From Candidatus Hecatella orcuttiae (GTDB lineage: Archaea > Thermoproteota > Bathyarchaeia > Hecatellales > Hecatellaceae): a DNA stretch of 64,000 bases. The position numbers were made by a program, and so were the translations under genes. Position 1 is the first letter of the stretch. Each line of letters starts with the position of its first letter. The notes under the pieces were generated by a model. It saw only the letters and a list, made by a program, of their open reading frames with translations, did not search any database and was not told the DNA's origin. Below are positions 36,491-56,783 of this stretch, piece by piece. The stretch is from NCBI GenBank assembly GCA_002011035.2, contig MTLY02000002.1, positions 1-64,000 on the forward strand, given 5' to 3'.

Positions 36491-37987
36491 TTAGGAGCCC
36501 ATGGCAGGAGTCAGCCCTGAGAGAAGCTGGGAGAGGAAGGGCGCTGCCACGTTGGTGAGGACAGTGGGATAAATGCCGAGGACGACCGCCACCACGGCCA
36601 AGACTAGGATGGGCGCCGTCATCAACCTAGGCCCTTCTTTCGCCTCCTTCAAAGGTTCAGGGGTTCCGCCGAAGAAGACCCGGCGCACCGTCCAGAGGCC
36701 GTAGCCCGCGGTCATGGCGGAGAAAACCACGGCGATGCCCGTCACCCATATACGGGTCAAGTTGGGGGCTGTCACCCCACCGAAGCCTGTTCCTGTGTAG
36801 ATGGAACCTCCGAAGGTGAAGAACTCCCCCCAGAACCCGATGAGGGGCGGGGCTCCCATGAGAGTTAGAAACCCTAGGAGGGTAGCCGTGGCCGAGTAGG
36901 GCATTCTCCCCGCCAGTCCGCCCAGTTCCCGGATGCTCCGGGTGTGGAGGGTGTGGATGAAGATGCCGGCTACCATGAAGAGGATAGCCTTTCCCAAGCC
37001 GTGGCTGACGTAGATGAGCACAGCCCCCGTGAGGCCTAGGGCTGAGAGGGAGACGACGCCGAAGAGCAAGTAGCCCATCTGGCTGATGCTGGAGTAGGCC
37101 AGAAGCCTTTTGATGTCGTCTTGAGCCAAGGCCATGTAGCCGCCGTAGATCATAGTCACCACCGCCAAGACGACCAAGGCCATGACGAACTGCCCATGCC
37201 CTAAAACCATGGGAAAGGCCGTGTAGACGATGCGGATGGCGGCGTAGCCTCCGATACCCACCATGGCCGGAGACAGCAAGGCGCTGATGGGCGTCGGCGC
37301 CTCGGCGTGGGCGTCAGGCAGCCACGTGTGGAGGGGGAAGATGGCCATCTTGACGAAGAGGCCGAGGAGTATGGCGGAGACTATAGCCACAGCTGTGCCG
37401 ACACTGACTCTCTCCATTCCCGCGGCGATGGCGAACACGTCGAAGGTCCCCGCCAAAAACCGGGCGGTCACAATGCCTGCTAGAAGGAACAAGGCTCCTG
37501 CCTCGGTGAACATGAAATATTTGAAGGCAATTTTCTCCCGGGCCCCTGTGCCCCAGACTCCTATGAGAGCCCAAGAGGGGATAAGCATCAGCTCGAAGAA
37601 GACGAAAAAGGCTGCTAGGTTGGTGACCAACACCGTGCCCATCATCCCAGCAGAGTAGAGAAGGTAGAGAGCGAAGTAGGCGTGGAGGTTGCGCTCATGC
37701 TCCATGTAGGAAATAGAGTAGATAGCGATCAAAGCAGCCAACATGGATATGACCAAAGCGAAAGGTGTGCTCAGACCGTCGGCCACCAAGGTGAAATCGC
37801 CCAAATAGCGTCCCCAAGGATAGCTGGCCACTAGGCTGCCGCCCCAACTTCGAAGCTGGAAGAGGATGAAGCCCAGAAGCCCTGTGGTGTAGGTTAGTAC
37901 GGCGAAAGCCAGCCAGCCTGCGTATTTGCCCAGCCTCCCTCCCACGGCAAGGGCTATTGCGGAGAAGGCGATGGGAACCATGACCAC
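36491..37987 (-). CDS. nuoM: Complex I-like subunit M
   Basis: Motifs FFELMLIP, KMAIFPLHTWLPDAHAEAPT, AYSSISQMG, SHGL. The start may lie 9 codons upstream. Confidence 0.92.
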   Translation of the reverse strand: MVMVPIAFSAIALAVGGRLGKYAGWLAFAVLTYTTGLLGFILFQLRSWGGSLVASYPWGRYLGDFTLVADGLSTPFALVISMLAALIAIYSISYMEHERNLHAYFALYLLYSAGMMGTVLVTNLAAFFVFFELMLIPSWALIGVWGTGAREKIAFKYFMFTEAGALFLLAGIVTARFLAGTFDVFAIAAGMERVSVGTAVAIVSAILLGLFVKMAIFPLHTWLPDAHAEAPTPISALLSPAMVGIGGYAAIRIVYTAFPMVLGHGQFVMALVVLAVVTMIYGGYMALAQDDIKRLLAYSSISQMGYLLFGVVSLSALGLTGAVLIYVSHGLGKAILFMVAGIFIHTLHTRSIRELGGLAGRMPYSATATLLGFLTLMGAPPLIGFWGEFFTFGGSIYTGTGFGGVTAPNLTRIWVTGIAVVFSAMTAGYGLWTVRRVFFGGTPEPLKEAKEGPRLMTAPILVLAVVAVVLGIYPTVLTNVAAPFLSQLLSGLTPAMGS

Positions 37988-38023
37988 TTGTAGTAGCAGC
38001 TGATTGGTGTCTATCGTTTCCCT

Positions 38024-40093
38024 TCACCCCATCACTGTTAAGGCCAAGAGGAGGAAGAACACCACGAAGCCGAGGATGATCCCCTCCACATTGTGGGTGA
38101 GAATTCCAGAGTGAGTTTTTCTGAAGCTGTTGGAGAAGCCGGCTGTGGCGTTGGCTAAAACGTAGTTGAACCGGTCGATGACCCCCAGCTCTATTTTCTT
38201 CAACGCCCACATGCACCCTCCGATCATCGGGTAGACGATAGCCTTGTAGAAGAAACGGTTAATGTACCACCTGTTCAACACAAACTGCCTCAACACCGCC
38301 AGCAAACCGTAGCGTTGAAGAAACACCGAAGGCTCCAGCTTCCGCTTTACATAGAGGAAGTAGGCGGGAAGAGCTCCGGCCAGAAGCATGGCCACTGATA
38401 TGCCGGCGGTCACCCAAACAGCTAGCTCATGGGGGAACCCATGAACAGCCACAGCCTCCGAATGGCCTCCGCCTGCGGGGAGAAGCTCTCCCAGATATTC
38501 GTGGAAGACCCCTTCAAACCATCCTTTGACGAAGGGACCCATGACCCCGAAGGCTAGAGTGCCGATGACCAAGGCCAAGAAAGGAATCCACATGACCTTA
38601 GGCGCCTCGTGGACATGGTGGCCGTGGCGTTCTTGCTCCGCGAGGTGGGAGCTCTTAGGGCCGAAGAAGGTTAAACCCAGCATCCTAACGCTGTAGAAGC
38701 TGGTCACGGCCACGGTCACCGCTCCTAGGGCGAAGATCCAATACTGCCCCGCCAGCAGAGGGGCCTCCAGAACCATGTCCTTACTCCAGAAGCCGCTGAA
38801 GAGAAGGGGCACCCCCATGAGGGAAAAGGCGGCTAGGGACATGCACCAGAAGGTAATGGGCATGTACCGCCTGATGCCTCCCATGTGGGTCATAAACCGG
38901 GACTCGCAGGTGTGGATGACGGCCCCCGCGGTGAGAAAGAGGGCTGCCTTAAACATGGCATGACTCATGAGGTGGAAGACTCCGCCCACGTAGCCGACGA
39001 GAAACTCCGCAGTGGAGCCGGCTATGCCCAAGGCCAGCATCATGTAGCCCAGCTGGCTGACCGTGGAGTAGGCCAGCACCTTCTTTATCTCGCTGGAAAC
39101 CATGCCTTGGCTGCCTGCCACAAAGGCGGTGATAGCTCCAACCCAGGCGATGACGTAGAAAAAGGTGATAAGCTCGTTAGCTGCTCCCCCATGCCACACA
39201 GCGGTGTAGAACATGGGGAAAACCCGCCCTACCAAGTAGACACCGGCATTGACCATGGTCGCGGCGTGGATGAGAGCGCTGACCGTGGTAGGCCCTGCCA
39301 TGGCGTCGGGAAGCCACTCCATCAGGGGGAGCTGCGCTGACTTCCCAATAGGGCCTCCGAAGAGGAGGATGGCAGCGGGGATCAGGACGGCTAGGGGCAC
39401 TCGTAGGATGGCGCCTCCCTGAAGCTCCACGAAGTTGAGGGTGCCGGCGAAGGCTAGGAGGAGGAAGGCTCCGAGGAGGAAGAAGAGGTCGCCCATTCTC
39501 GTCGTGATGAAGGCCTTCATGCCGCAGTGGGAGGGCGGGTAGGCTTCAGGGCCTTCCCCAACCCAGCATTTAAGCCAGTCCTCCTTGGAGTCGCGGTGCC
39601 AGAACCCTATGAGGGCGTAGCTGCACAGGCCGACGCCCTCCCAGCCGAAGAGAAGCTGGATGATGTTGTCGGACATCACCAGCAGAAGCATGCTGCCGAT
39701 GAAGAAGTTCATGAAAAACCAGTAGCGAGTCAGGCTGGGGTCGCCGTGCATGTAGCCGAGGGAGTAAACCATGATGAGGAAGCCTATCACCGCGACCACG
39801 TTGGCCATGATGATGCTGAGGGGGTCGACGATGACCCCGGCCATCAGCCGGCTTAAAACCGGAGCGCCCTCCATGACCACCCAGAGAACCTGGTTGTGGA
39901 AGTACTTCCCTTCCCAAAGGTAGGGGATGAGGCTGAGGGTCATAACCATGGCGAGGAAAGAGAAAACAATCGCACCGTAGTCCCTGACTTTGGAGTGAAC
40001 CTTGGCCAACAGAGGAGTTAACACAGCTCCCAGCATGGGGAAAATCCAGCTGAGCCAAGCCGGCCAAACGAAGATTTCGGTGATGTACTCCAT
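38024..40093 (-). CDS. nuoL: Complex I-like subunit L
   Basis: Motifs GWEGVGLCSY, GKSAQLP..WLPDAMAGPTTVSALIHAAT, FWSKD. Confidence 0.95.
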   Translation of the reverse strand: MEYITEIFVWPAWLSWIFPMLGAVLTPLLAKVHSKVRDYGAIVFSFLAMVMTLSLIPYLWEGKYFHNQVLWVVMEGAPVLSRLMAGVIVDPLSIIMANVVAVIGFLIMVYSLGYMHGDPSLTRYWFFMNFFIGSMLLLVMSDNIIQLLFGWEGVGLCSYALIGFWHRDSKEDWLKCWVGEGPEAYPPSHCGMKAFITTRMGDLFFLLGAFLLLAFAGTLNFVELQGGAILRVPLAVLIPAAILLFGGPIGKSAQLPLMEWLPDAMAGPTTVSALIHAATMVNAGVYLVGRVFPMFYTAVWHGGAANELITFFYVIAWVGAITAFVAGSQGMVSSEIKKVLAYSTVSQLGYMMLALGIAGSTAEFLVGYVGGVFHLMSHAMFKAALFLTAGAVIHTCESRFMTHMGGIRRYMPITFWCMSLAAFSLMGVPLLFSGFWSKDMVLEAPLLAGQYWIFALGAVTVAVTSFYSVRMLGLTFFGPKSSHLAEQERHGHHVHEAPKVMWIPFLALVIGTLAFGVMGPFVKGWFEGVFHEYLGELLPAGGGHSEAVAVHGFPHELAVWVTAGISVAMLLAGALPAYFLYVKRKLEPSVFLQRYGLLAVLRQFVLNRWYINRFFYKAIVYPMIGGCMWALKKIELGVIDRFNYVLANATAGFSNSFRKTHSGILTHNVEGIILGFVVFFLLLALTVMG

Positions 40094-40097
40094 ACCT

Positions 40098-41645
40098 TCA
40101 CCCTCCTATCAAAGCATGGGCGGCGCTGTCCGCCAGCTGAATTACAAGGTCAGGCCATATGCCCACCACCACGCAGGCAGCCGCCAGCAGCACGATGGGT
40201 AAAACCATGGTTCCCGGGGCTTCCCTAGCGCCCTCCGCCCTCGTCTTGGGCTTCCGAAACATCACCCTCTGCATGACCCAAAGGTAATAGGCTGCTGCGA
40301 AGACGCTGTTAACCACCACGGCGATGGTCACCCCCACCATGAAAGGGTCCTTGGCCATGTTGAAGCCTGCGAGGATGATGAACAGCTTACTCCAGAAGCC
40401 GCTGAGGGGAGGAACCCCCGCCAAAGTCAGAAGCCCAACGGAGAAAGACGCCCCAGTCCAAGGCATCTTTTTCCCTATCCCCTCCAACTCCGCTAGGTCC
40501 CTGGTCTTGGCTTCGTGGATGAAGCAACCGGAGCAGAGGAAGAGGAGGCCCTTTCCCACAGCGTGGTTGAACACGTGGAACAGCGCCCCCATGATGGCTA
40601 GGCCTGCCACCACCAAGGCGATTTCAGGGGCTGTGGAATAATAATGGGTGAGGGCGTAGGCTCCGATGCCGGCTCCGGTGAGGATGTAGCCGATGTTGAC
40701 GATGCTGGAGTAGGCCAGCAGCCTCTTGATGTCCCTCTGCAGCAGAGCCATGATGTTGGCCACGGTCATGGTGAGGATGCCGAAGAGCATCAGCACCGTT
40801 CCGAAATCGAAGACCAAAGGTGTAAAGGCCACGAACAAAACTCTGTAGATGGCGTAAACACCTACCTTGATGACTACCCCCGACAGCATGGCGCTGATGG
40901 AAGCCGGAGCAGCTGGGTGAGCGTCTGGAAGCCATGTGTGGAAGGGAACCACCGAAGCCGTCACTCCGAAGCCGCAGACGATCATAGTGACCAAAAAGAA
41001 CATGGTGAGAGTGGAAGGACCTGCTTCCTGAAGACCTTGGGCTAGGGCCTCGAAGTTGAGGGTGCCTGTTATGCCGTAGAGAAAGGACATGGCGTAGAGG
41101 AAGAGGAGGGAGCCGAAGGTGCTCATCACCAAGTATTTGAAGCTGGCTTCTATGGGCTCCCACCGGTGCTTCCGGAAGGCTACGAGGACGTAGGCGGAGA
41201 GGGACATAGTCTCCCAGAAGATGAAAAGGTTGAAGAAATCACCCGCGAAAGCCACTCCGATCATGCCAGCCACCATGGCCAAGAGCAAAGCGTAGTACTT
41301 GTCCAAGCCTGAATCCTTCTCCATGTATCGCAGAGAGTAAACAGCCACCATCAGACCCACCCCCACGTAGACGTAAGCCATGTACACGCTTAGAGAATCC
41401 ACAAAGTAGGTGACCCCGAAAGGCGGCCCGTAGGCTTCTAGGTGGTAGACAGCGAAGCCTTCCTCTGAAGCCTTGACCAAAAGGTCCAGCTTAAAAACAT
41501 AGTACAGGGTGGCGGCGAAGGCTCCTATGGAGAAAAGGTCCCTTGCCTTCTCAAACCCGACGGCTTTCCCCAACGCTGTAACAAGCGGCGTTAGAATAGC
41601 TGCGAAGAGAAGAGTCAACACAGGCATCAAGACGAGTAAAGACAC
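40098..41645 (-). CDS. Proton-pumping antiporter-like subunit (NuoN position, MrpD-like)
   Basis: Motifs DFFNLFIFWE, PFHTWLPDAHPAAP, KRLLAYSS, FNHAVGK. Confidence 0.85.
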   Translation of the reverse strand: MSLLVLMPVLTLLFAAILTPLVTALGKAVGFEKARDLFSIGAFAATLYYVFKLDLLVKASEEGFAVYHLEAYGPPFGVTYFVDSLSVYMAYVYVGVGLMVAVYSLRYMEKDSGLDKYYALLLAMVAGMIGVAFAGDFFNLFIFWETMSLSAYVLVAFRKHRWEPIEASFKYLVMSTFGSLLFLYAMSFLYGITGTLNFEALAQGLQEAGPSTLTMFFLVTMIVCGFGVTASVVPFHTWLPDAHPAAPASISAMLSGVVIKVGVYAIYRVLFVAFTPLVFDFGTVLMLFGILTMTVANIMALLQRDIKRLLAYSSIVNIGYILTGAGIGAYALTHYYSTAPEIALVVAGLAIMGALFHVFNHAVGKGLLFLCSGCFIHEAKTRDLAELEGIGKKMPWTGASFSVGLLTLAGVPPLSGFWSKLFIILAGFNMAKDPFMVGVTIAVVVNSVFAAAYYLWVMQRVMFRKPKTRAEGAREAPGTMVLPIVLLAAACVVVGIWPDLVIQLADSAAHALIGG

Positions 41646-41648
41646 AGC

Positions 41649-41969
41649 TTACCACCTCAGCCTCCTCAGTCTTCTGACATCCAAGGTTGCATAATGGCGG
41701 TGGGCGTTGATGACCAGCAGCAGGGCTAAGGTAGCTATGGCCGCCGCAATGACGATGGAGACGATGACCACGCTCTGGGCTAAAGCCTCCACGGCCAGGG
41801 TGGGAGAAAGCTCCGAGCCCAAAGCCACAAAGTTCAGGTGAACAGCTGAGGTTAGAATTTCCACTCCGATGACGATTTTGATCATGTTCCTTTTCACAGC
41901 GATGCAGTAGGCTCCGAGGATGAAAAGGATGGCAGCCGCGGCCAAGTACCAACTCGTTTCTAGGCTCAT
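41649..41969 (-). CDS. nuoK: Complex I-like subunit K
   Basis: 3 TM helices; KRNMIKIVIGVEI; C-terminal LRRLRW. Confidence 0.88.
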   Translation of the reverse strand: MSLETSWYLAAAAILFILGAYCIAVKRNMIKIVIGVEILTSAVHLNFVALGSELSPTLAVEALAQSVVIVSIVIAAAIATLALLLVINAHRHYATLDVRRLRRLRW

Positions 41970-41972
41970 AGG

Positions 41973-42272
41973 CTATTCTTCCTCCTCTTCGGAGATTTCT
42001 TCCTCCACGCCCTCCACGAAGACCTCCTCCTCCGGACCTGCCTCTTCAGTTCTGAAGAGAGCAGCGGCTCCGACGATGGTGACAAAGACCGTCAGAAACA
42101 GGAAGAGGATGTCGAACTCCCGGTAGGTCCAAAGCCAAAGTTGCTCTGGGAGGGGAGAAGGAGGTAGGGTAGGATTGGGGATGATGAAGTAGGAGCCCAT
42201 AAAACTGGCTATGATGACGGTGAAAGCAAGTAGAACGGCTAATCCCACTATCCTACCTGCAAGCGAGTTCAT
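41973..42272 (-). CDS. NuoJ C-terminal half (split J)
   Basis: LWTYREFD...TIVGAAAL; lies between nuoJ-N and nuoK. Confidence 0.7.
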   Translation of the reverse strand: MNSLAGRIVGLAVLLAFTVIIASFMGSYFIIPNPTLPPSPLPEQLWLWTYREFDILFLFLTVFVTIVGAAALFRTEEAGPEEEVFVEGVEEEISEEEEE

Positions 42273-42276
42273 CTTT

Positions 42277-42519
42277 TCACAACTTCTTGACGGTGTGGAA
42301 GGTTACCAGCAACAGGACGACAACGGCTCCCACGTAGATGAGAACCTGCACAGCCGCCACGTAGGGCGCGCCCAAAAGGAAGAAAGCCACAGCCAAAAGG
42401 ATGCTCATGAAAAAGAAGGAAGCAATGGCCTTGGGTATGTTTCGGAACTCAACAGCTAGAAAAGCGCAGCCGATTGTGAGGAGGATGACGGCCATTTCAA
42501 GAAGAGCCAGCGGTTCCAA
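42277..42519 (-). CDS. nuoJ: NuoJ N-terminal half
   Basis: LGAPYVAAVQVLIYVGAVVVL; TTG 42519 follows a GGTG RBS. Confidence 0.85.
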   Translation of the reverse strand: MEPLALLEMAVILLTIGCAFLAVEFRNIPKAIASFFFMSILLAVAFFLLGAPYVAAVQVLIYVGAVVVLLLVTFHTVKKL

Positions 42520-42719
42520 TCTTACACCACAAAGCCTTCGTTTGAAATGTTTTTTATCTAAAAGGAGATGAAGATATAAATTCTTCGCTCCCTTTTTCGG
42601 GAAAATGCAGGCGTATATACAGTTCAAAAGATGTTTACTTTCAAAATTAAAGGATAAACCATAAATGCGACATTAATGTACTATTTTCTCGAGAACAAAC
42701 AAAGGAAAAGGGAAGAGCA

Positions 42720-43082
42720 GTGGCAGACCTTCTGGGCCTAGTGGTGTACATTGTCATCATGCTCCTGTTTCCCATAGGCCTAGTGCTGTCCGGAAAGATA
42801 TTCGGCCCGTCCAATCCCAGTCCCACCAAGAACTTGGCCTTTGAATGTGGACAGGTTCCTCTTGGAGACCCTCGGATAACCTTCAACATTCGATACTATC
42901 CTTACGCCATGATCTACGCGGTCTTCGGGGCCATAGCTATCTTTCTCCTCCTCACCGCCCCTGCCATCATCAGGTTGGGAGGCGAGGTTTCAACTTTCAT
43001 TTCCATCTCTCTCGCTGTGGTGATCCTCGCCTTGGTCAGCGCTGTGACTTCTCTCCGTTCGGCTAGGAGGAGGTTGAGGTGA
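42720..43082 (+). CDS. nuoA: Complex I-like subunit A
   Basis: K..AFECG..P.G..RI.F..RYY. Confidence 0.9.
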   Translation: MADLLGLVVYIVIMLLFPIGLVLSGKIFGPSNPSPTKNLAFECGQVPLGDPRITFNIRYYPYAMIYAVFGAIAIFLLLTAPAIIRLGGEVSTFISISLAVVILALVSAVTSLRSARRRLR

Positions 43083-43549
43083 CCCTAAGCCCTGTGGCTA
43101 AGGCTAAGGAAACATACACCCTCCTGAAGGATAAAATCCTCAACTGGGGTCGAGCTTGGTCTCTGTGGTCTGTTCACCTTTGCACAGGCTGCTGCAGCCC
43201 TGAGCTGATGGCTGTTTCGTGTTCCCGGTTCGACGCGGAAAGGTTCGGCACTCTGCCCTTCCCTTCTTTAAGGCAGTGTGACCTTCTCTTCGTGTTGGGT
43301 GTGGTTAGCGAGAAAATGGCGAAAAGGGTTAAATTGATCTACGATCAAATGCCTGACCCGAAATATGTCATAGCCTTAGGGGACTGCGCCATCTCCGGAG
43401 GCTTGTGGTGGGACTCCTACTGCGTCGTTCAGGGGATCGATAAGGTGGTCCCTGTGGACGTCTATGTGCCGGGATGCCCCCCAAGGCCGGAAGCCTTCAT
43501 CCAAGGCATTATGATGTTGCAGAAGAAGATCCAAGGGAAAGAAGTTTGA
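43079..43549 (+). CDS. nuoB: Complex I-like subunit B
   Basis: Motifs GCCSPE, FDAERFG, QMPDPKYV, GDCA, PGCPPRPE. Confidence 0.95.
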   Translation: MTLSPVAKAKETYTLLKDKILNWGRAWSLWSVHLCTGCCSPELMAVSCSRFDAERFGTLPFPSLRQCDLLFVLGVVSEKMAKRVKLIYDQMPDPKYVIALGDCAISGGLWWDSYCVVQGIDKVVPVDVYVPGCPPRPEAFIQGIMMLQKKIQGKEV

Positions 43550-44025
43550 GCGAGGCTGCTGAAAAAGCTGAAGCCATGGTTACTGAGGATGTTAAATCTA
43601 AATTTGGTGATGCTGTTCTCCAAGCTGAAGTCCAGCGGAAAGGCAGAATAAGCATAAAAGTCAATAAAGACCGCCTAGCAGATGTCGCCAGATACCTGAA
43701 GGATAGCTACAACTTTGACCATCTGGCCTCTGTTTCCGGAACCGACTACCCTGACCGGAAGGAGTTCGAAGTCGTCTACCATGTCTGGTCCATTCCCCGG
43801 AAGATTCTGGCAGCCTTAAGAGTTTCCCTGCCCAGAGAAGACCCTCAACTGGACACGCTTATCCCTGTTTGGGAAGCTGCCAATCTTCATGAGAGGGAAA
43901 CCCATGAAATGTTGGGGATAAACTTCGCCGGTCACCCCAACCTTTCCGGGCTATTGCTTCCGGAGGACTGGAAGCAGATGCCTCCCCTGAGAAAAGACTT
44001 CAAACTACCGTCCAAGCCGAGGTAG
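43546..44025 (+). CDS. nuoC: Complex I-like subunit C
   Basis: Motifs GTDYP, ERETHEMLGINFAGHP, PLRKDF; TTG overlaps the nuoB stop. Confidence 0.92.
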   Translation: MSEAAEKAEAMVTEDVKSKFGDAVLQAEVQRKGRISIKVNKDRLADVARYLKDSYNFDHLASVSGTDYPDRKEFEVVYHVWSIPRKILAALRVSLPREDPQLDTLIPVWEAANLHERETHEMLGINFAGHPNLSGLLLPEDWKQMPPLRKDFKLPSKPR

Positions 44026-44035
44026 GTGTGGCTCT

Positions 44036-45115
44036 ATGCCTGTCATGCGTGTGAAATTCGGTCCTCAGCACCCTATCAGCGGCCACCTTTGCCTTGCCCT
44101 TGACGTTGACGGGGATGTTGTGGTCAACATTGAGCCTGACATCGGTTACACGCATCGGGGATTGGAGAAGATAGCTGAAAACCGCAACTACGTTCAAGCG
44201 GTTCCCCCATTGGAGAGAGCTAACATCGTTGACTCGGTCCACATGGTTTTAGGCTATGTGGAGGCGGTGGAGGAGCTCATGGGGGTGGAGGTGCCGGAGA
44301 GGGCGAAGTTCATCCGGGTCATCATGGCTGAGATGAGCAGAATAGCCAGCCACCTCTACTGGCTTTGTTTGATGGCGGTGGCTGTGGGTTTGGAAACAAT
44401 GCTCATGTGGCCCATTAACGACAGGGAACTGCTCCTAGACCTCTTCGAGATGTATACGGGGGCGAGGATAACTCACTCTTTCTTCATCCCCGGAGGGGTT
44501 CGGCGGGACCTTCCTCAAGGCTTTAAAGAGCAAACCTTCAGAGCGCTGAGCTATCTGGAGCAACGGCTGGGCGATTATGACCGAATGCTTTACCAAAGCT
44601 ACACTTTCAAAATAAGGACCCAAGGAGTTGGGAAGCTTAAACCTCAAGAAGCCATAAAGCTGGGGTTGGTTGGCCCTTCTATCAGAGGGTCGGGGGTGAA
44701 GGTGGATGTGCGAAAAGATGAACCTTATGCTGCGTATGACCAGCTGGAGTTCACCGTGCCCACGGGGAAGGTGGGAGACTCCTACGACAGGTCTGTGGTG
44801 AGGCTTAGGGAAATGGAGCAGAGCATCTCCCTCATCCGCCAAGCGCTGGAGAGGCTTCCCAGCGGGCCCATTAAGGCTCCTGCCCCTTCCTCCGCTCCGA
44901 AAGGGGAAACTTATAGCAGAGTGGAGTCGGCTCGGGGGGAGTTGGGCTACTATCTGGTGGGGGACGGAACCACCCGGCCTTACCGTTTGAAGATAAGCAG
45001 TCCCTCTTTTAGAAACCTCCCTGCCATGGGTTATCTATCTAAAAATGTCCCCTTCGCGGACATACCCGTTATACTGTGGAGTCTAGACCTCTGGCCGTTG
45101 GACATGGATAGGTGA
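44036..45115 (+). CDS. nuoD: Complex I-like subunit D (no NiFe ligands)
   Basis: Motifs FGPQHP, GYTHRGLEK, ESARGE, C-terminal DMDR; both CxxC motifs of group 4 hydrogenases are absent. Confidence 0.93.
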   Translation: MPVMRVKFGPQHPISGHLCLALDVDGDVVVNIEPDIGYTHRGLEKIAENRNYVQAVPPLERANIVDSVHMVLGYVEAVEELMGVEVPERAKFIRVIMAEMSRIASHLYWLCLMAVAVGLETMLMWPINDRELLLDLFEMYTGARITHSFFIPGGVRRDLPQGFKEQTFRALSYLEQRLGDYDRMLYQSYTFKIRTQGVGKLKPQEAIKLGLVGPSIRGSGVKVDVRKDEPYAAYDQLEFTVPTGKVGDSYDRSVVRLREMEQSISLIRQALERLPSGPIKAPAPSSAPKGETYSRVESARGELGYYLVGDGTTRPYRLKISSPSFRNLPAMGYLSKNVPFADIPVILWSLDLWPLDMDR

Positions 45116-45121
45116 AAAAGC

Positions 45122-46207
45122 TTGGTGGGGTTGGAGTCTCTGACGTTGCAGCTGTGGCAGCTCTGGCAGAGCGGCTACCTGACGGAGCTCTTCATCAAAG
45201 TCATCATCTTCCCAGGCTTAGTCCACATATCCCTTGTCGTGCTACTGGCTGTGTGGTTTGAGAGAAAAGTAAACGCGAGAATCCATCTTCGAGTAGGACC
45301 CTACCATGTAGGCCCGGTGATGGGCTTTTTCCAGCCTATCGCCGACTTCGTTAAACTGATAGGAAAGGAGCTCATCGTCCCTGAGAAAGCTCATAAGCTC
45401 CTTTACAAGACGGCGCCCATCTCCGCTCTAGCTCTTTCCACGTTGAGCTTCGCTTTCATTCCCTTCGGGGTCATCGGCTCGGAGATGAGTTTACCGTTCA
45501 TTCCCTTCCACCTAAGCCCCGGAGAATACTGGGTTGTCTACTACTCGAACATCAGCCTCCTCATCGTCATCCTGCTCTTCAGCGTGCGCCCTTTCATCAT
45601 CATAGCAGCCGGCTGGGCATGCCGGAGTAAATACTGCACCGTAGGCGCCCTTCGTACAGCTTTTCAGCTTCTCGCCTATGAAGTTCCCCTTCTAGTGGCC
45701 ATCGTCGGCGTCGTCATGGTGGCCGGGTCCTTCGACCTTGTGGCCATAATAGAAAGCCAGTCCTCCATTTGGCATGGAGTCTTTCAGCCTCTCGGCCTCG
45801 CTGTCTTCTTCGTCGCCATGATGGCGGAAGTGTCCCGGAGACCCTTCGACCTACCCCACGCTGAACAGGAATTGGTCTACGGCTGGGCTACGGAGTATCC
45901 CGGCGTCCTCTACGGATGCTTCATGATGGCGGAATACGTTGACCTGTATCTGGGGGCGGTGCTGATGACAGCTCTTTTCTTGGGAGGATGGCTAGGCCCA
46001 GCTTTCCTGCCGCCCATCGCGTGGTTTCTGCTGAAGGCTGGGATCATCGTCTGCATCGTCACCCTCCTCCGAGGAGTGTTCCCCCGGGTGAGAATAGACC
46101 AGCTTCTGGACGCAGGTTGGACGTATCTGATACCTCTGGCTCTTATCCAGGTGCTGATCATCCTAGGCCTCGCTCATGTGGCACCAGGCCTGCTGGGTTT
46201 GGCGTAA
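45122..46207 (+). CDS. nuoH: Complex I-like subunit H
   Basis: Motifs WFERK, RVGP, QPIADFVKL..KE, RRPFDLPHAEQE, PRVRIDQ. Confidence 0.95.
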   Translation: MVGLESLTLQLWQLWQSGYLTELFIKVIIFPGLVHISLVVLLAVWFERKVNARIHLRVGPYHVGPVMGFFQPIADFVKLIGKELIVPEKAHKLLYKTAPISALALSTLSFAFIPFGVIGSEMSLPFIPFHLSPGEYWVVYYSNISLLIVILLFSVRPFIIIAAGWACRSKYCTVGALRTAFQLLAYEVPLLVAIVGVVMVAGSFDLVAIIESQSSIWHGVFQPLGLAVFFVAMMAEVSRRPFDLPHAEQELVYGWATEYPGVLYGCFMMAEYVDLYLGAVLMTALFLGGWLGPAFLPPIAWFLLKAGIIVCIVTLLRGVFPRVRIDQLLDAGWTYLIPLALIQVLIILGLAHVAPGLLGLA

Positions 46208-46233
46208 AATGGAAAAAGTAAGGTGAAAAGAAA

Positions 46234-46680
46234 ATGTCTTCCATCGTAAAGCCGTTGAAAGTTGTGCTGGAACATTTCCCAAAAAGAACCTTTACGGTCT
46301 TTCATCCCTATGAAGCTCTAAAGCTACCGGAAAGGTCTCGTGGCGGCATCCAGCTGGACATGGAAAAGTGCACTGGCTGCGGTGTATGCGCCTACATCTG
46401 CCCTAATGTAGCCATAGAACTGGTCACCAGAGGAGAGAAGAGATACCCCAAACTGGATTATGGAAGATGCTGCTTCTGCGCTCTTTGTGTGGACTACTGC
46501 CCTAGGAAGGCGCTGAAAACCACACCGGTACATGAGCTGGCGGAGTTCAGCAGAGCGGAGCTGGAATATCCCCCTGAACGCCTCGCTCAACCTCCGCAGA
46601 TAACCAAACCTAAGCCCGCCCCTCGCCGAAAAATTGTTTCCATAAAAAAGATCGACCAAAGGGGAGTTTCACACCACTAA
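46234..46680 (+). CDS. nuoI: Complex I-like subunit I (2x[4Fe-4S])
   Basis: Motifs CTGCGVCAYICP and CCFCALCVDYCP. Confidence 0.93.
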   Translation: MSSIVKPLKVVLEHFPKRTFTVFHPYEALKLPERSRGGIQLDMEKCTGCGVCAYICPNVAIELVTRGEKRYPKLDYGRCCFCALCVDYCPRKALKTTPVHELAEFSRAELEYPPERLAQPPQITKPKPAPRRKIVSIKKIDQRGVSHH

Positions 46681-53408: not shown

Positions 53409-54284
53409 TTGAAGTTGAGGGGCTGCAGCCTAATGGGGGAGACAGGAACCTACAAGGCTAAGCTTCAACATCTGCTTTTCCCCTTGTTAACCCTCTCCAT
53501 GGCGATGGCTTTCGCCGCCCTTCTCTCGGCTGCTTATACTTCGCCGCCTCTGAACCCTCTGCCTTTTGAAGGCGGCCTCTCCGCCTCTGCTTACAATGCT
53601 CTGTACTACGCAGCCTTGATAGCGGGGATGGGGCTGGTCTTCTACCTTCTCACCAAGGCCGGTATGAGAAAAATTTTGAAGACTCTCATCCTCGGAGTCT
53701 ACGCCCTCCTAGTTTTCGCTCTTGCCTCCATATATTCTGCTGCAGGCTTCTGGATAGCCGGTTTGAGTCCACCTTTCAGCTCCTACCTTGGGGGGTTAGG
53801 CTCGGTGGCAGTTGTTTTTCTGGCCCTCTACGCTGTTTTCGTCAGGGGCGGAGTCTGGAGGTCCATCGTCATGTTTCTGGTGGCCGCAGGTTTAGGGGCT
53901 CTCCTAGGCTTTACCATTCCAAGCCTCAGCGTCTACGCCATTCTCATCGCTCTCTCCGTCTACGATGTTTTCGCCGTGTTCAAGGGGCCTCTGGGGAGAA
54001 TGCCTTGGACGGCGGAGCCAGAGGTTTTCACAGGTCTCATTCTCACCCACGACAATTTGAAAATAGGGCTGGGGGACCTAGCCTTCTACTCTATGCTGGC
54101 ATCCCACATCTACCTTCTCCAAGGCTTTTACCCCTTCCTAGCGGCTTCCTTGGGGATACTTCTAGGCGTCTATCTTTCCCTCAAACTTTTGGAGCGGAGA
54201 AGCATGGTTCCGGGACTGCCTTTAGCCGTCGGCCTAGGGATAATCTTCACCCAGCTCCTCAACTTTCTCCAACCCCTTATTTGA
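53409..54284 (+). CDS. Presenilin-family (GxGD) intramembrane aspartyl protease
   Basis: Motifs LSVYD..AV, IGLGDL.FYS, PGLP. Confidence 0.85.
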   Translation: MKLRGCSLMGETGTYKAKLQHLLFPLLTLSMAMAFAALLSAAYTSPPLNPLPFEGGLSASAYNALYYAALIAGMGLVFYLLTKAGMRKILKTLILGVYALLVFALASIYSAAGFWIAGLSPPFSSYLGGLGSVAVVFLALYAVFVRGGVWRSIVMFLVAAGLGALLGFTIPSLSVYAILIALSVYDVFAVFKGPLGRMPWTAEPEVFTGLILTHDNLKIGLGDLAFYSMLASHIYLLQGFYPFLAASLGILLGVYLSLKLLERRSMVPGLPLAVGLGIIFTQLLNFLQPLI

Positions 54285-54447
54285 AAATCCATCAGTTTAA
54301 GGGACTGGGGGAAAAGCTTCCTGTTCCTAAGTGATATGGACGGACTGCGCTAGGCTACTAGAAAAATATCAGAATATTGATAACATGCTGCACGCATAGT
54401 AAATTATAAATATATATTCCAAAATAATATAACTAGCGTGATAAATA

Positions 54448-54555
54448 ATGACCGTACATCAAATCATAGACGTAGTATATATTCTGTACGCGGTAGGCGT
54501 AGCGACATTTATGCTTCTCTATGTTCGCAAAATCACGCAGAAAGGAGGGGGGTAA
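54448..54555 (+). CDS. 35-aa single-TM protein; putative small (IIa-like) subunit of the oxidase-family complex
   Basis: MTVHQIIDVVYILYAVGVATFMLLYVRKITQKGGG*; first ORF after the AT-rich promoter and 4 nt before subunit II. Confidence 0.7.
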   Translation: MTVHQIIDVVYILYAVGVATFMLLYVRKITQKGGG

Positions 54556-54559
54556 AAAG

Positions 54560-54982
54560 GTGGAGAAAGCGGAAAAAAGATGGCTGGTCATCTTAGTTGC
54601 CGTAGCAGTGGTCTTTAACGCTACAACGCTTTCTCCTCTAGTCCCTTGGCAAAACTGGCTTTTCTGGTCTCCGCCTACTCCAGTGGAAGAATTCCATATA
54701 AGGATGAAAAATTACACTTTCCAACTTCCCCCGGATGGGATAACAGTCCAAGTAGGTGAGCCTGTTAGGTTTATCGTGACGTCGGAGGATGTAACCTATG
54801 GTTTCGGAGTCTTCAGAGAGGATGGGAGCATCGTCTTCCAGATGCAGGTGCTCCCCGGGTATCGCAATTCGATCCTGTGGGTGTTCGATGAACCCGGCGA
54901 CTACACCATCCGTTCCACGGAGTACTCCGGCCCATACCATCCCCACATGGTCTTACCGAATGCCATTCGCGTGGTGGAGTGA
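54560..54982 (+). CDS. Heme-copper oxidase subunit II-like cupredoxin lacking CuA ligands
   Basis: One TM helix, SEDVTYGF, MQVLPG, STEYSGPYHPHM; GTG follows a GGAGG RBS. Confidence 0.85.
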   Translation: MEKAEKRWLVILVAVAVVFNATTLSPLVPWQNWLFWSPPTPVEEFHIRMKNYTFQLPPDGITVQVGEPVRFIVTSEDVTYGFGVFREDGSIVFQMQVLPGYRNSILWVFDEPGDYTIRSTEYSGPYHPHMVLPNAIRVVE

Positions 54983-54997
54983 GGTGGAGGCTTTCCC

Positions 54998-56587
54998 ATG
55001 ACCTATGAAAGGCTTACTCTGCGTTATGCGATAATCTCAACACTGTTCCTAGGCCTAGCTGGCATTGAAGGTTTGCTGATGAGGGTGCAACTGGTGAACA
55101 TTCCGTTGTTCGACTTCGAACACTACTACGCCATGCTGACCGTTCACCCGTTTGTGGGAATCTACGGATGGGCTTACTTGGGGGTGATAGGCGCCTTTTA
55201 CTATCTCGTCCCTAAACTCCTTAACAAACCCCTCTACAGCCTCAAGCTGGCCGACGTGAACCTGTGGACCTTCGTCGCAGGAGTGCTCATCGTTTGGTCT
55301 TCCGGGCTTCTCACCAAGTTCGGCTCCCTCTACACCCTCTACTGGCCGCTGCCTGTGGAGAGGTTCCCTCCCAACAGCGTAGTCTTTTTCTCCTCAGGCC
55401 TACTGCTCATAGAACTGTCGGTGTTGCTGTTCATCTTCAACATCTTCGCCACCGTTTTCAGCAGAAAAGGGGAGAGTTCGGGGAAAACCTTCAAAAGTCT
55501 TCTCTTATCCGCCTTCGGGCTTGAGGGTTTGTCCCAACGGTTCAGCATGGCCCTCAGCAAGTTGGGAGTAAAGTCTTCCAAGCGTATGTTGAACGGAGGC
55601 AGCGGCTCCAATCCTCAACCCATGCCTGTGTTTGTTGTGGCGGTGATGCGGGGAAGCGTCGACGCTGTTCTCAACGCGCTGGTTCTAGCTGGGGCAGGAG
55701 GCTTGCTGTTGGCTTTCAGCCTGCCGGCGCTTTTAGCCGGTGTGATGCTAAACCCTCTCATCGTCGACCCACTAGTCTACAAGAACGTGTTCTGGTGGGG
55801 TTTGGATATGATTGCCGACGGCGATGTTTTGATATGGGTGGCTGGAGCCTTGTATCTTCTCGCTCCTTTACTCACAAACCGGAAACTTTACGCTGAAGAT
55901 GTGGTGAGGAAGGTTATCCTAGCAGACCTTCTCATCTCCATGGGCGTGTGGAGCCACCATCTGATGTCCGACCTTCCCCAGCCTTCGTTTATGAGGCTGA
56001 TCTCAGGGCAGTTCATAACTTGGGGTGAGTTCTTCACCATGGGGCTGACGTTTTTCGCCGTCCTGATGACCGTCTGGCTGGCTCGGCCGGTTAAGCTAAC
56101 TATGCCTCTGAAATTCATGCTGGGGGGTATTTTCGGCTTCATGCTTGGAGGAGGTTCAGGGCTGCTTCAAGCCAACTACGCTTTGAACCTAGTCATGCAC
56201 AACACCCAGTGGGTTCCCGGATTCCACATTCACCAGATGGTGCTGGTGGGGTTAGGCGGCGTCATCTTCGCTGTCATCTACGCTCTTCTGCCCATGTTGA
56301 CAGGCACTGAGTTGAAGAGTCAGAAGCTGAGCAACCTTCACTTCTGGCTTTGGATGATCGGAGGCGTAGGTATGGCCTTTTCCATGGGGCTGGCGTGGAC
56401 GCCGGGTATGCTGAGGAGAACCCTCTACCCTGACACTACCATCTACCTGCCCTATATGAGCTCAGCCATGTTCTTTGGAATACTGCTCGCCATCGGATTC
56501 CTAGCCTTCATCATAAACCTCGTCCATACCTACGGGCTGCGAACACTGGTAGGACTCTTCATACCTCAGAGGAAAACCAAACCCTAA
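54998..56587 (+). CDS. Heme-copper oxidase superfamily subunit I with non-canonical active site (NOR-like)
   Basis: Motifs LTVHP, WSHH, HNTQW...HIH, GMLRR; helix VI reads FWWGLDMIAD. Confidence 0.9.
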   Translation: MTYERLTLRYAIISTLFLGLAGIEGLLMRVQLVNIPLFDFEHYYAMLTVHPFVGIYGWAYLGVIGAFYYLVPKLLNKPLYSLKLADVNLWTFVAGVLIVWSSGLLTKFGSLYTLYWPLPVERFPPNSVVFFSSGLLLIELSVLLFIFNIFATVFSRKGESSGKTFKSLLLSAFGLEGLSQRFSMALSKLGVKSSKRMLNGGSGSNPQPMPVFVVAVMRGSVDAVLNALVLAGAGGLLLAFSLPALLAGVMLNPLIVDPLVYKNVFWWGLDMIADGDVLIWVAGALYLLAPLLTNRKLYAEDVVRKVILADLLISMGVWSHHLMSDLPQPSFMRLISGQFITWGEFFTMGLTFFAVLMTVWLARPVKLTMPLKFMLGGIFGFMLGGGSGLLQANYALNLVMHNTQWVPGFHIHQMVLVGLGGVIFAVIYALLPMLTGTELKSQKLSNLHFWLWMIGGVGMAFSMGLAWTPGMLRRTLYPDTTIYLPYMSSAMFFGILLAIGFLAFIINLVHTYGLRTLVGLFIPQRKTKP

Positions 56588-56708: not shown

Positions 56709-56783
56709 GCGGCCGTGGTCTAGCCTGGCCTAGGACAGGGGCCCCCCAAGCCCCTAACCCGGGTTCGAATCCCGGCGGCCGCA
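56709..56783 (+). tRNA. tRNA-Gly(CCC) with C33
   Basis: GCGGCCG/CGGCCGC acceptor, GGGGC-CCCCCAA-GCCCC anticodon arm, GGTTCGAATCC. Confidence 0.9.

Follow-up and report, generated by a model that had tools for sequence, protein, structure and literature searches.

A probable gNOR-type heme-copper operon with a split subunit II in a Bathyarchaeia genome

The operon and its large subunit

The first 64,000 nucleotides of contig MTLY02000002.1 of Candidatus Hecatella orcuttiae, a member of the Bathyarchaeia (assembly GCA_002011035.2; this whole stretch is called the window here), carry three closely packed, intact forward-strand reading frames between a presenilin-like gene and a tRNA-Gly gene. 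They form an operon of three genes, encoding a 35-residue (aa) helix, subunit II, and subunit I of a heme-copper enzyme (Table 1). The original prediction, drawn by a model from the DNA letters, had described subunits I and II as an enzyme with an Asp/Asp active site and no CuA, had taken it for something other than an O2 reductase, and had proposed it as the best candidate for an undescribed system. We confirmed the observation, whereas the interpretation is partly supported: the kind of enzyme was recognized correctly, but the literature already covers the system. What is new here is an archaeal member of a known family, probably gNOR (norGH), and the conserved split subunit that it carries is overlooked by gene callers. 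The earlier description began at position 54448, which is exactly the first nucleotide of the smallest gene (hereafter the micro-ORF, for open reading frame), and the micro-ORF itself was left undescribed there.

Subunit I matched the Pfam family COX1 over residues 6-493 (E = 1.9e-62, 212 bits), and its best solved relatives were Thermus ba3 oxidase chains (E = 9e-14). A HMMER alignment to Thermus ba3 subunit I placed FWWGLDMIADGD opposite FWWTGHPIVYFW with high posterior probability, so that D270 takes the place of the CuB-ligating His, D274 that of the cross-link Tyr, and D276 that of a Trp. In alignment, H50 (TVHP), H320/H321 (HH), and H410/H412 (HxH) matched the ba3 ligands of heme b, CuB, and heme a3/b, respectively. 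The retained TVHP, HH, and HxH ligands and the Asp at both the His and the Tyr positions had thus been read correctly, and with the CuB His and the cross-link Tyr both replaced, the claim that this is not an O2 reductase stands as well.

D270 and D274 were invariant in 121/121 sequences, a set made up of the query and 120 homologues chosen by overall similarity (88-51% identity); the concern that homologues might not conserve these residues, as in a decaying gene, was thereby answered. The third Asp (DGD) that had been added to the site is present as D276 but is not conserved. It was D in 77 and N in 44 of the similarity-selected sequences, and N in 59, D in 11, and L in 9 of a motif-selected genome set, which places it outside the conserved site. 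The three heme His were invariant in two alignments (12/12 and 79/79 rows), no conserved alternative Tyr was found in helix VII of the aligned homologues, and about 110 invariant columns are retained across archaea and bacteria. In a scan that covered 1.84 billion cluster representatives, only the bacterial P0121 (47% identical) shared the motif GLD.IADG among 40 full-length representatives; the next relatives, about 30% identical, had GHP..Y, as in oxygen reductases, or GHT.AN. The Asp/Asp family is compact, conserved, and constrained, and this is not a decaying gene.

Subunit I is predicted to bind two hemes through the usual three His. Its putative non-heme site consists of H320, H321, and D270, with D274 one helical turn further, a carboxylate-rich arrangement of two His and two Asp that bears out the one originally suggested. 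Conserved in helix I, E24 and R29 are candidate quinol-binding residues. The NCBIfam oxidase models scored 39-114 bits against cut-offs of 583-1080, and NOR families were absent from the NCBIfam matches. An AF2 model of the protein (predicted local distance difference test (pLDDT) 74.9; predicted template modeling (pTM) score 0.79) had as its best Foldseek matches subunit I of aa3, bo3, and ba3 oxidases, with template modeling (TM) scores of 0.66-0.75.

Table 1. Features of the operon and its borders (positions in the window; residue numbers for sites within subunit I)
Feature	Position	Strand	Basis
Presenilin-like gene, upstream neighbor of the operon	53409-54284		Pfam Presenilin, 1.3e-11
AT-rich intergenic region with TATA-like runs ~30-50 nt 5' of the micro-ORF; probable promoter	54285..54447	+	by eye
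Micro-ORF, 35 codons + stop; one hydrophobic helix, basic C-terminal tail	54448..54555	+	translation, profile search
GGAGGGGGG, Shine-Dalgarno-like, 8-16 nt 5' of the subunit II GTG; overlaps the micro-ORF end	54544..54552	+	by eye
Subunit II (NorH-like), 140 aa from GTG 54560; one membrane helix + CuA-less cupredoxin domain	54560..54982	+	
Subunit I (NorG-like), 529 aa; heme-copper oxidoreductase fold	54998..56587	+	ORF, Pfam, alignments
Predicted heme ligands	H50, H410, H412 of subunit I		
Predicted metal site	D270, D274, H320, H321 of subunit I		
Heme-propionate Arg pair	R473/R474 of subunit I		
tRNA-Gly(CCC), downstream operon boundary	56709..56783	+	

Subunit II and the 35-codon gene

Compared with ba3 subunit II (E = 1.8e-08), subunit II has Tyr in place of H114 and Ser in place of both C149 and C153: the ba3 motif DVIHGF reads DVTYGF, and CNQYCGLGHQNM reads STEYSGPYHPHM. 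The second CuA His and the Met are retained, the first His and both Cys are gone, and the 140-residue protein contains zero Cys, so that it can hold neither a CuA center nor a CxxCH motif. These substitutions and the missing CxxCH agree with what had been noticed from the letters. The loss of CuA ligands extended to 26/26 aligned subunit II rows, and TYGFG and STEYSGP were invariant in 26/26. The NCBIfam models SoxA (38 bits) and CoxB (33 bits) both remained far under their cut-offs.

The longest frame for this subunit opens at an ATG (54521..54982, 153 aa), a start that would overlap the micro-ORF. The GTG listed in Table 1 aligns with the start Met (M-E/D-x-x-E-[KR]) of 16 other split-type rows in our subunit II alignment (A3); in 5 of those 16, the start Met comes after a short over-called extension.

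We searched for the micro-ORF peptide with jackhmmer in 21,604 six-frame segments from 80 loci that encode relatives and from 10 kb of the window. The 59 matches all lay on the + strand, and their ends ranged from 25 nt past to 540 nt before the called start of subunit I. The peptide is a separate gene of 33-37 codons just 5' of subunit II in the window and in 49/80 loci (41 Chloroflexota, 4 Bathyarchaeia, and 4 other Thermoproteota), and it is fused as the first helix of a 177-218-aa subunit II in 9 loci, among them the two Campylobacterota loci and Methanomethylicia. No peptide match was obtained in 22 loci: 6 are truncated upstream, 12 have a long subunit II (186-205 aa, with two N-terminal hydrophobic segments in a crude scan), and 4 fit neither description. 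The extra N-terminal helix is directly visible in alignment A3, and the peptides themselves are aligned in A4. Taken together, the split and fused forms indicate that two helices precede the cupredoxin domain in this family, and that some lineages encode the first of them as its own gene; the micro-ORF would correspond to this first membrane helix of the two-helix subunit II forms.

A three-chain complex model that included the peptide scored 0.91 (0.91, 0.92, and 0.91 in separate runs), and the best control scored 0.00; the mark used for such models is reached by 58/80 solved complexes and by 2/110 mismatched pairs. Contact agreement between runs was at least 94%, with a partner pLDDT of at least 85. 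The modeled peptide contacts residues 356-400 and 461-468 of subunit I and residues 28-29 and 90-91 of subunit II. Because ba3 has been solved together with its subunit IIa, resemblance to known structures may account for this result. The peptide belonged to no Pfam family (chance-level helix matches only, best E 0.006), its profile matched no PDB chain, and its exact sequence was absent from a set of 15 billion predicted proteins in which subunit I of the host is present; an Atlas search with the peptide gave scores of at most 0.82, which are leads only. Public gene calls thus miss a conserved 35-residue subunit. For that reason, constructs for expressing Bathyarchaeia, Thermoproteota, or Chloroflexota copies of the enzyme should carry the 35-residue gene as well.

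Relation to gNOR and to characterized enzymes

We consider it probable that the operon encodes an archaeal member of the already published gNOR (norGH) family. In PMC11214002, gNOR is presented as the first heme-copper family with a replaced active-site His, the replacement being Asp; its cupredoxin subunit lacks CuA residues, the enzyme is probably quinol-oxidizing, and the family is B-family kin found in Bacteria and Archaea, mostly in sulfidic settings. Table A4 of PMC8756737 (modified from Hemp & Gennis 2008) gives Asp at the oxidase Tyr site of gNOR and Glu in cNOR/qNOR, and names Sulfurimonas, Sulfurovum, and Persephonella as hosts; that paper traces the family to Sievert et al. 2008 and Hemp & Gennis 2008. 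The norGH genes are further described as encoding a non-electrogenic, quinone-oxidizing enzyme (PMC8906906), Damo_1118-1119 as the gNOR of Ca. Methylomirabilis oxyfera (PMC6094997), and I. album as having no gNOR, in a paper on that organism.

All gNOR features that can be read from sequence are present in the operon proteins: the helix-VI His-to-Asp change, Asp at the Tyr site, a CuA-less cupredoxin subunit, B-family kinship, and a distribution over Bacteria and Archaea. The original reading as a nitric oxide (NO) reductase agrees with the gNOR proposal in PMC11214002. Its claim of an undescribed system fails, since these features are published, Table 1 of the same paper records gNOR 156 times in GTDB genomes and 913 times in IMG metagenomes, and our survey of 185,579 species genomes returned at least 442 genome records with a relative. 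Two things differ from gNOR as published: the operon belongs to a Bathyarchaeon, and few genomes of that class have the gene; and two genes, one for a 35-aa helix and one for a one-helix subunit, stand in for a single subunit II, a form that we did not see described in the texts consulted. gNOR is one of several NO reductase families predicted from sequence, which may be responsible for much of the N2O formed in nature; the copy studied here sets it in a near-complete Bathyarchaeia genome and bears on how sediment archaea cope with or use nitrogen oxides.

The best 80 relatives in the survey came from Bathyarchaeia (66-68% identity), other Thermoproteota, Methanomethylicia, Nitrososphaerota, many Chloroflexota (~50%), Nitrospirota, Nitrospinota, Myxococcota, a Campylobacterales metagenome-assembled genome (43%), and Nitratiruptor (45%). 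A tree of 59 rows, namely 47 Asp/Asp sequences (11/44 Chloroflexota rows kept) and 12 outgroup representatives, was built by a quick method, with long outgroup branches flagged. All Asp/Asp sequences formed one clade with a Shimodaira-Hasegawa-like approximate likelihood ratio test (SH-aLRT) value of 100, and the Campylobacterales and Nitratiruptor copies were nested inside it. Four Bathyarchaeia copies formed the sister group of the window protein (97), and all five lay within a Thermoproteota clade (96, 99). Bathyarchaeia loci L055 and L071 fell in a distant Nitrososphaerota-type clade, whereas L002-L005 fell in the Thermoproteota-like clade.

Among solved structures, the ba3 oxidase of Thermus thermophilus (1EHK, 3S8F) was the best sequence relative of both subunits. 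It pairs a 3.8-kDa single-helix subunit IIa of ~34 residues with a one-helix cupredoxin subunit and a large subunit (PMC3141039), the same three-part make-up as in this operon; it differs in its three-His CuB, His-Tyr cofactor, CuA, and O2 reduction, the first three of which are absent here. The subunit IIa helix is reported to be inverted relative to aa3 subunit II, whereas the basic C-terminal tail of our peptide and its place before the subunit II helix in the fused forms suggest an aa3-like orientation. A ba3-type B-family O2 reductase was rejected because the three-His CuB, the His-Tyr cross-link, and CuA are all missing and the oxidase models score far below cut-off. With cNOR/qNOR, the operon shares the proposed reaction, the lack of a Tyr cofactor, and a carboxylate at the oxidase Tyr position (Glu there, Asp here); it differs in its two His and two Asp, its B-family kinship, and its cupredoxin subunit without metal ligands. 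Assignment to cNOR/qNOR was likewise rejected, as these need three His and a Glu where two His are present, together with a heme c subunit or an N-terminal quinol-binding domain fused to the protein; subunit II has no CxxCH, and no NCBIfam NOR model matched.

Escherichia coli bo3 resembles the operon in having a CuA-less cupredoxin subunit II and in taking electrons from quinol (comparison in PMC11214002). It differs in being an A-family O2 reductase with a His-Tyr cofactor, and CyoB scored 39 bits against a cut-off of 1020; the bo3 fold was among the top Foldseek matches (TM 0.71-0.74). In helix II, the residue eight positions ahead of the heme His, which would match the bo3 quinol-site His, is H only in the closest relatives when inspected by eye, and a bo3-like quinol site was rejected.

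Proposed role and genomic setting

The host genome (1.75 Mb, 3 contigs, 97% complete) yielded one heme-copper enzyme, and our search of it found neither cytochrome bd nor a second heme-copper oxidase. A search for heme synthesis, which had been proposed as a check, recovered heme o synthase (252.7 bits against a cut-off of 210.3), HemA, and HemB; CcmF is also present. The companion search for nir genes came back empty: NirK was not found in the genome, nor was NirS, for which the control was weak. A nos_propeller search aimed at NosZ gave no match either, but its control matched in none of 14 genomes, so this negative carries no weight. The genome has six hemerythrin-domain genes. A complex-I-like cluster lies in the window 8 kb upstream of the operon (36491-46680) and includes NuoA, B, C, D, H, I, and K with three antiporter-like subunits, in two divergent arms (NuoK and the antiporter-like subunits on the - strand, NuoA, B, C, D, H, and I on the + strand). 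About 30-40 kb past the window end are HemA, CcmF, and three multiheme c-type cytochromes (G000:C2:85001-85774, 94328-96112, and 96266-98149) with 10, 17, and 7 CxxCH motifs, respectively. Two of these gave a partial match to Pfam cytochrome c552 (NrfA-type), far under the NrfA equivalog cut-off, and the N-terminus of the decaheme protein is weakly NrfH-like (33 bits against a cut-off of 134).

The most likely role of the operon is NO reduction by quinol or a similar carrier, mainly as detoxification. In the proposed mechanism, the 2-His/2-Asp site would hold iron rather than copper, face the high-spin heme, and carry out 2 NO + 2 e- + 2 H+ -> N2O + H2O. The electron donor would be a membrane quinol or a comparable lipophilic carrier rather than cytochrome c or a CuA relay, and the complex-I-like enzyme could reduce this carrier. 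The electron-entry route, originally called unknown, is therefore not wholly so, since published work suggests quinol as the donor and the complex-I-like cluster is nearby. The 35-aa peptide would pack on subunit I beside the subunit II helix, like the first helix of the two-helix forms. The NO removed may be made by neighbors or arise as a by-product of the host's own multiheme cytochromes; with no NirK or NirS found and the gene patchy in the class, NO removal appears likelier than a denitrification step.

Several points weigh against assigning the operon to gNOR and against this role. Membership rests on the defining features and the Campylobacterota relatives and not on a labeled reference sequence: a search from P0121 returned 3171 proteins at E <= 1e-100, with no Sulfurimonas or Methylomirabilis name in the best 120. 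A side remark in a machine-learning preprint (10.1101/592808) ascribes a heme His-to-Glu change to gNOR, whereas H50, H410, and H412 are all invariant in our alignments; the remark does not define the family. Among the titles listed (27 of 30) for papers since 2022 that name 'gNOR', none reports a purification or assay, so that NO reduction is a proposal for the family as a whole. The AF2 confidence is lowest at residues 262-276, with a metal-site pLDDT below 50, so that the site geometry is not readable from the model. A quinone pathway is not evident in the host genome, where MqnA was not found and the only MenA-like prenyltransferase scored 127.6 bits against a cut-off of 277. The operon's own neighbors in the window give no link to NO, the hemerythrins that adjoin it in other loci resemble YtfE/RIC/DnrN only weakly (20-38 bits, cut-offs 205-300), and no denitrification genes were found beside the operon in the examined Campylobacterota loci, nor in those of Myxococcota and Omnitrophota.

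A respiratory use of the same enzyme, as the terminal reductase of a short chain that conserves energy, in which ferredoxin or F420H2 would feed the complex-I-like enzyme, a lipophilic carrier, and finally gNOR, with NO as a respiratory acceptor besides being a poison, strikes us as unlikely. That a genome of this completeness shows a single heme-copper enzyme and no cytochrome bd speaks in its favor, together with the nearby complex-I-like cluster, a dedicated heme o synthase, and the decaheme cytochrome, whose N-terminus hints at a quinol pool. Yet the NO-producing NirK or NirS was not found, environmental NO concentrations are low, and absence of the gene from the 13 other family genomes searched argues that it is not core metabolism. 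Moreover, published accounts call gNOR non-electrogenic and map no proton channel in it (PMC8756737 Table A4; PMC8906906). About as unlikely is a different chemistry in vivo, with the site acting on N2O, trace O2, peroxide, or NO dismutation. Two His and two Asp are unlike the three His and Glu of characterized NORs, the invariant STEYSGP and TYGFG surface of subunit II and the missing assay reports also leave room for it, and the superfamily has proposed NO dismutase and N2O reductase branches (PMC11214002). Against this, NO is reduced by a synthetic mimic of the gNOR site (cited in PMC11214002), the Asp occupies the position of the FeB-binding Glu of cNOR (PMC8756737 Table A4), O2 reduction in the superfamily requires the His-Tyr cofactor (PMC11214002), and the hemerythrin and Crp/Fnr neighbors in other loci fit NO stress.

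We regard as improbable the idea that the 2-His/2-Asp enzyme is no NO detoxifier but the terminal enzyme of a short membrane chain in an otherwise anaerobic Bathyarchaeon, fed by the complex-I-like enzyme, with a chemistry new to the heme-copper superfamily that acts on another nitrogen or oxygen species, and with the split 35-aa subunit and the invariant metal-free cupredoxin surface as the carrier entry site. A low-affinity or vestigial oxygen reductase, or a decaying gene, is very improbable: none of the 121 homologues retains the CuB His or the cross-link Tyr, helix VII offers no alternative conserved Tyr, the three frames are intact and tightly spaced, the invariant columns are numerous, and the oxidase models fall far short of their cut-offs. 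Detoxifying NO reduction by a gNOR-type enzyme thus remains the reading that we prefer.

As to neighboring genes, only subunits II and I recurred everywhere in the 80 loci. Hemerythrin-domain genes were found in 14, Crp/Fnr regulators in 7, and heme-o-synthase-like UbiA genes in 7, and HTH_10 regulators stood beside the operon in 12 archaeal loci. Seven Chloroflexota loci encode a 438-563-aa protein without a Pfam or NCBIfam match (459 aa at L024:7720-9099), which lies directly 3' of subunit I in 6/7 and may be an accessory or assembly factor.

The gene occurred in 9/301 sampled genomes of the class (host included), in 0/13 others of the host's own family, and in 8/44 of another family, which bears out the original remark that such an operon is unexpected in Bathyarchaeia. 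In three relatives from the host's family (L103, L104, and L105), the presenilin-like gene is followed by tRNA-Gly within ~0.1-0.6 kb, with no oxidase genes between them; the anticodon is TCC in these relatives and CCC in the window, and the other neighbors are not shared. No flanking direct repeats were found around the operon. It was probably acquired by transfer next to the tRNA-Gly gene. The placement of the Bathyarchaeia copies in two distant clades points to separate acquisitions; most simply, the class gained the gene on more than one occasion by transfer at a tRNA-flanked site.

Elsewhere in the host genome, the multiheme cytochromes, which lie beside CcmF and HemA, may take part in nitrite or extracellular electron chemistry. 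A 1154-aa molybdopterin oxidoreductase of DMSO-reductase type II, NarG-like (345 bits against a cut-off of 985), is encoded at G000:C2:162745-166209, and there are four more Mo enzymes, FwdB included. At G000:C3:322889-324568, a gene for an MtaA-type methylcobamide methyltransferase adjoins the best-scoring hemerythrin-domain gene of the genome.

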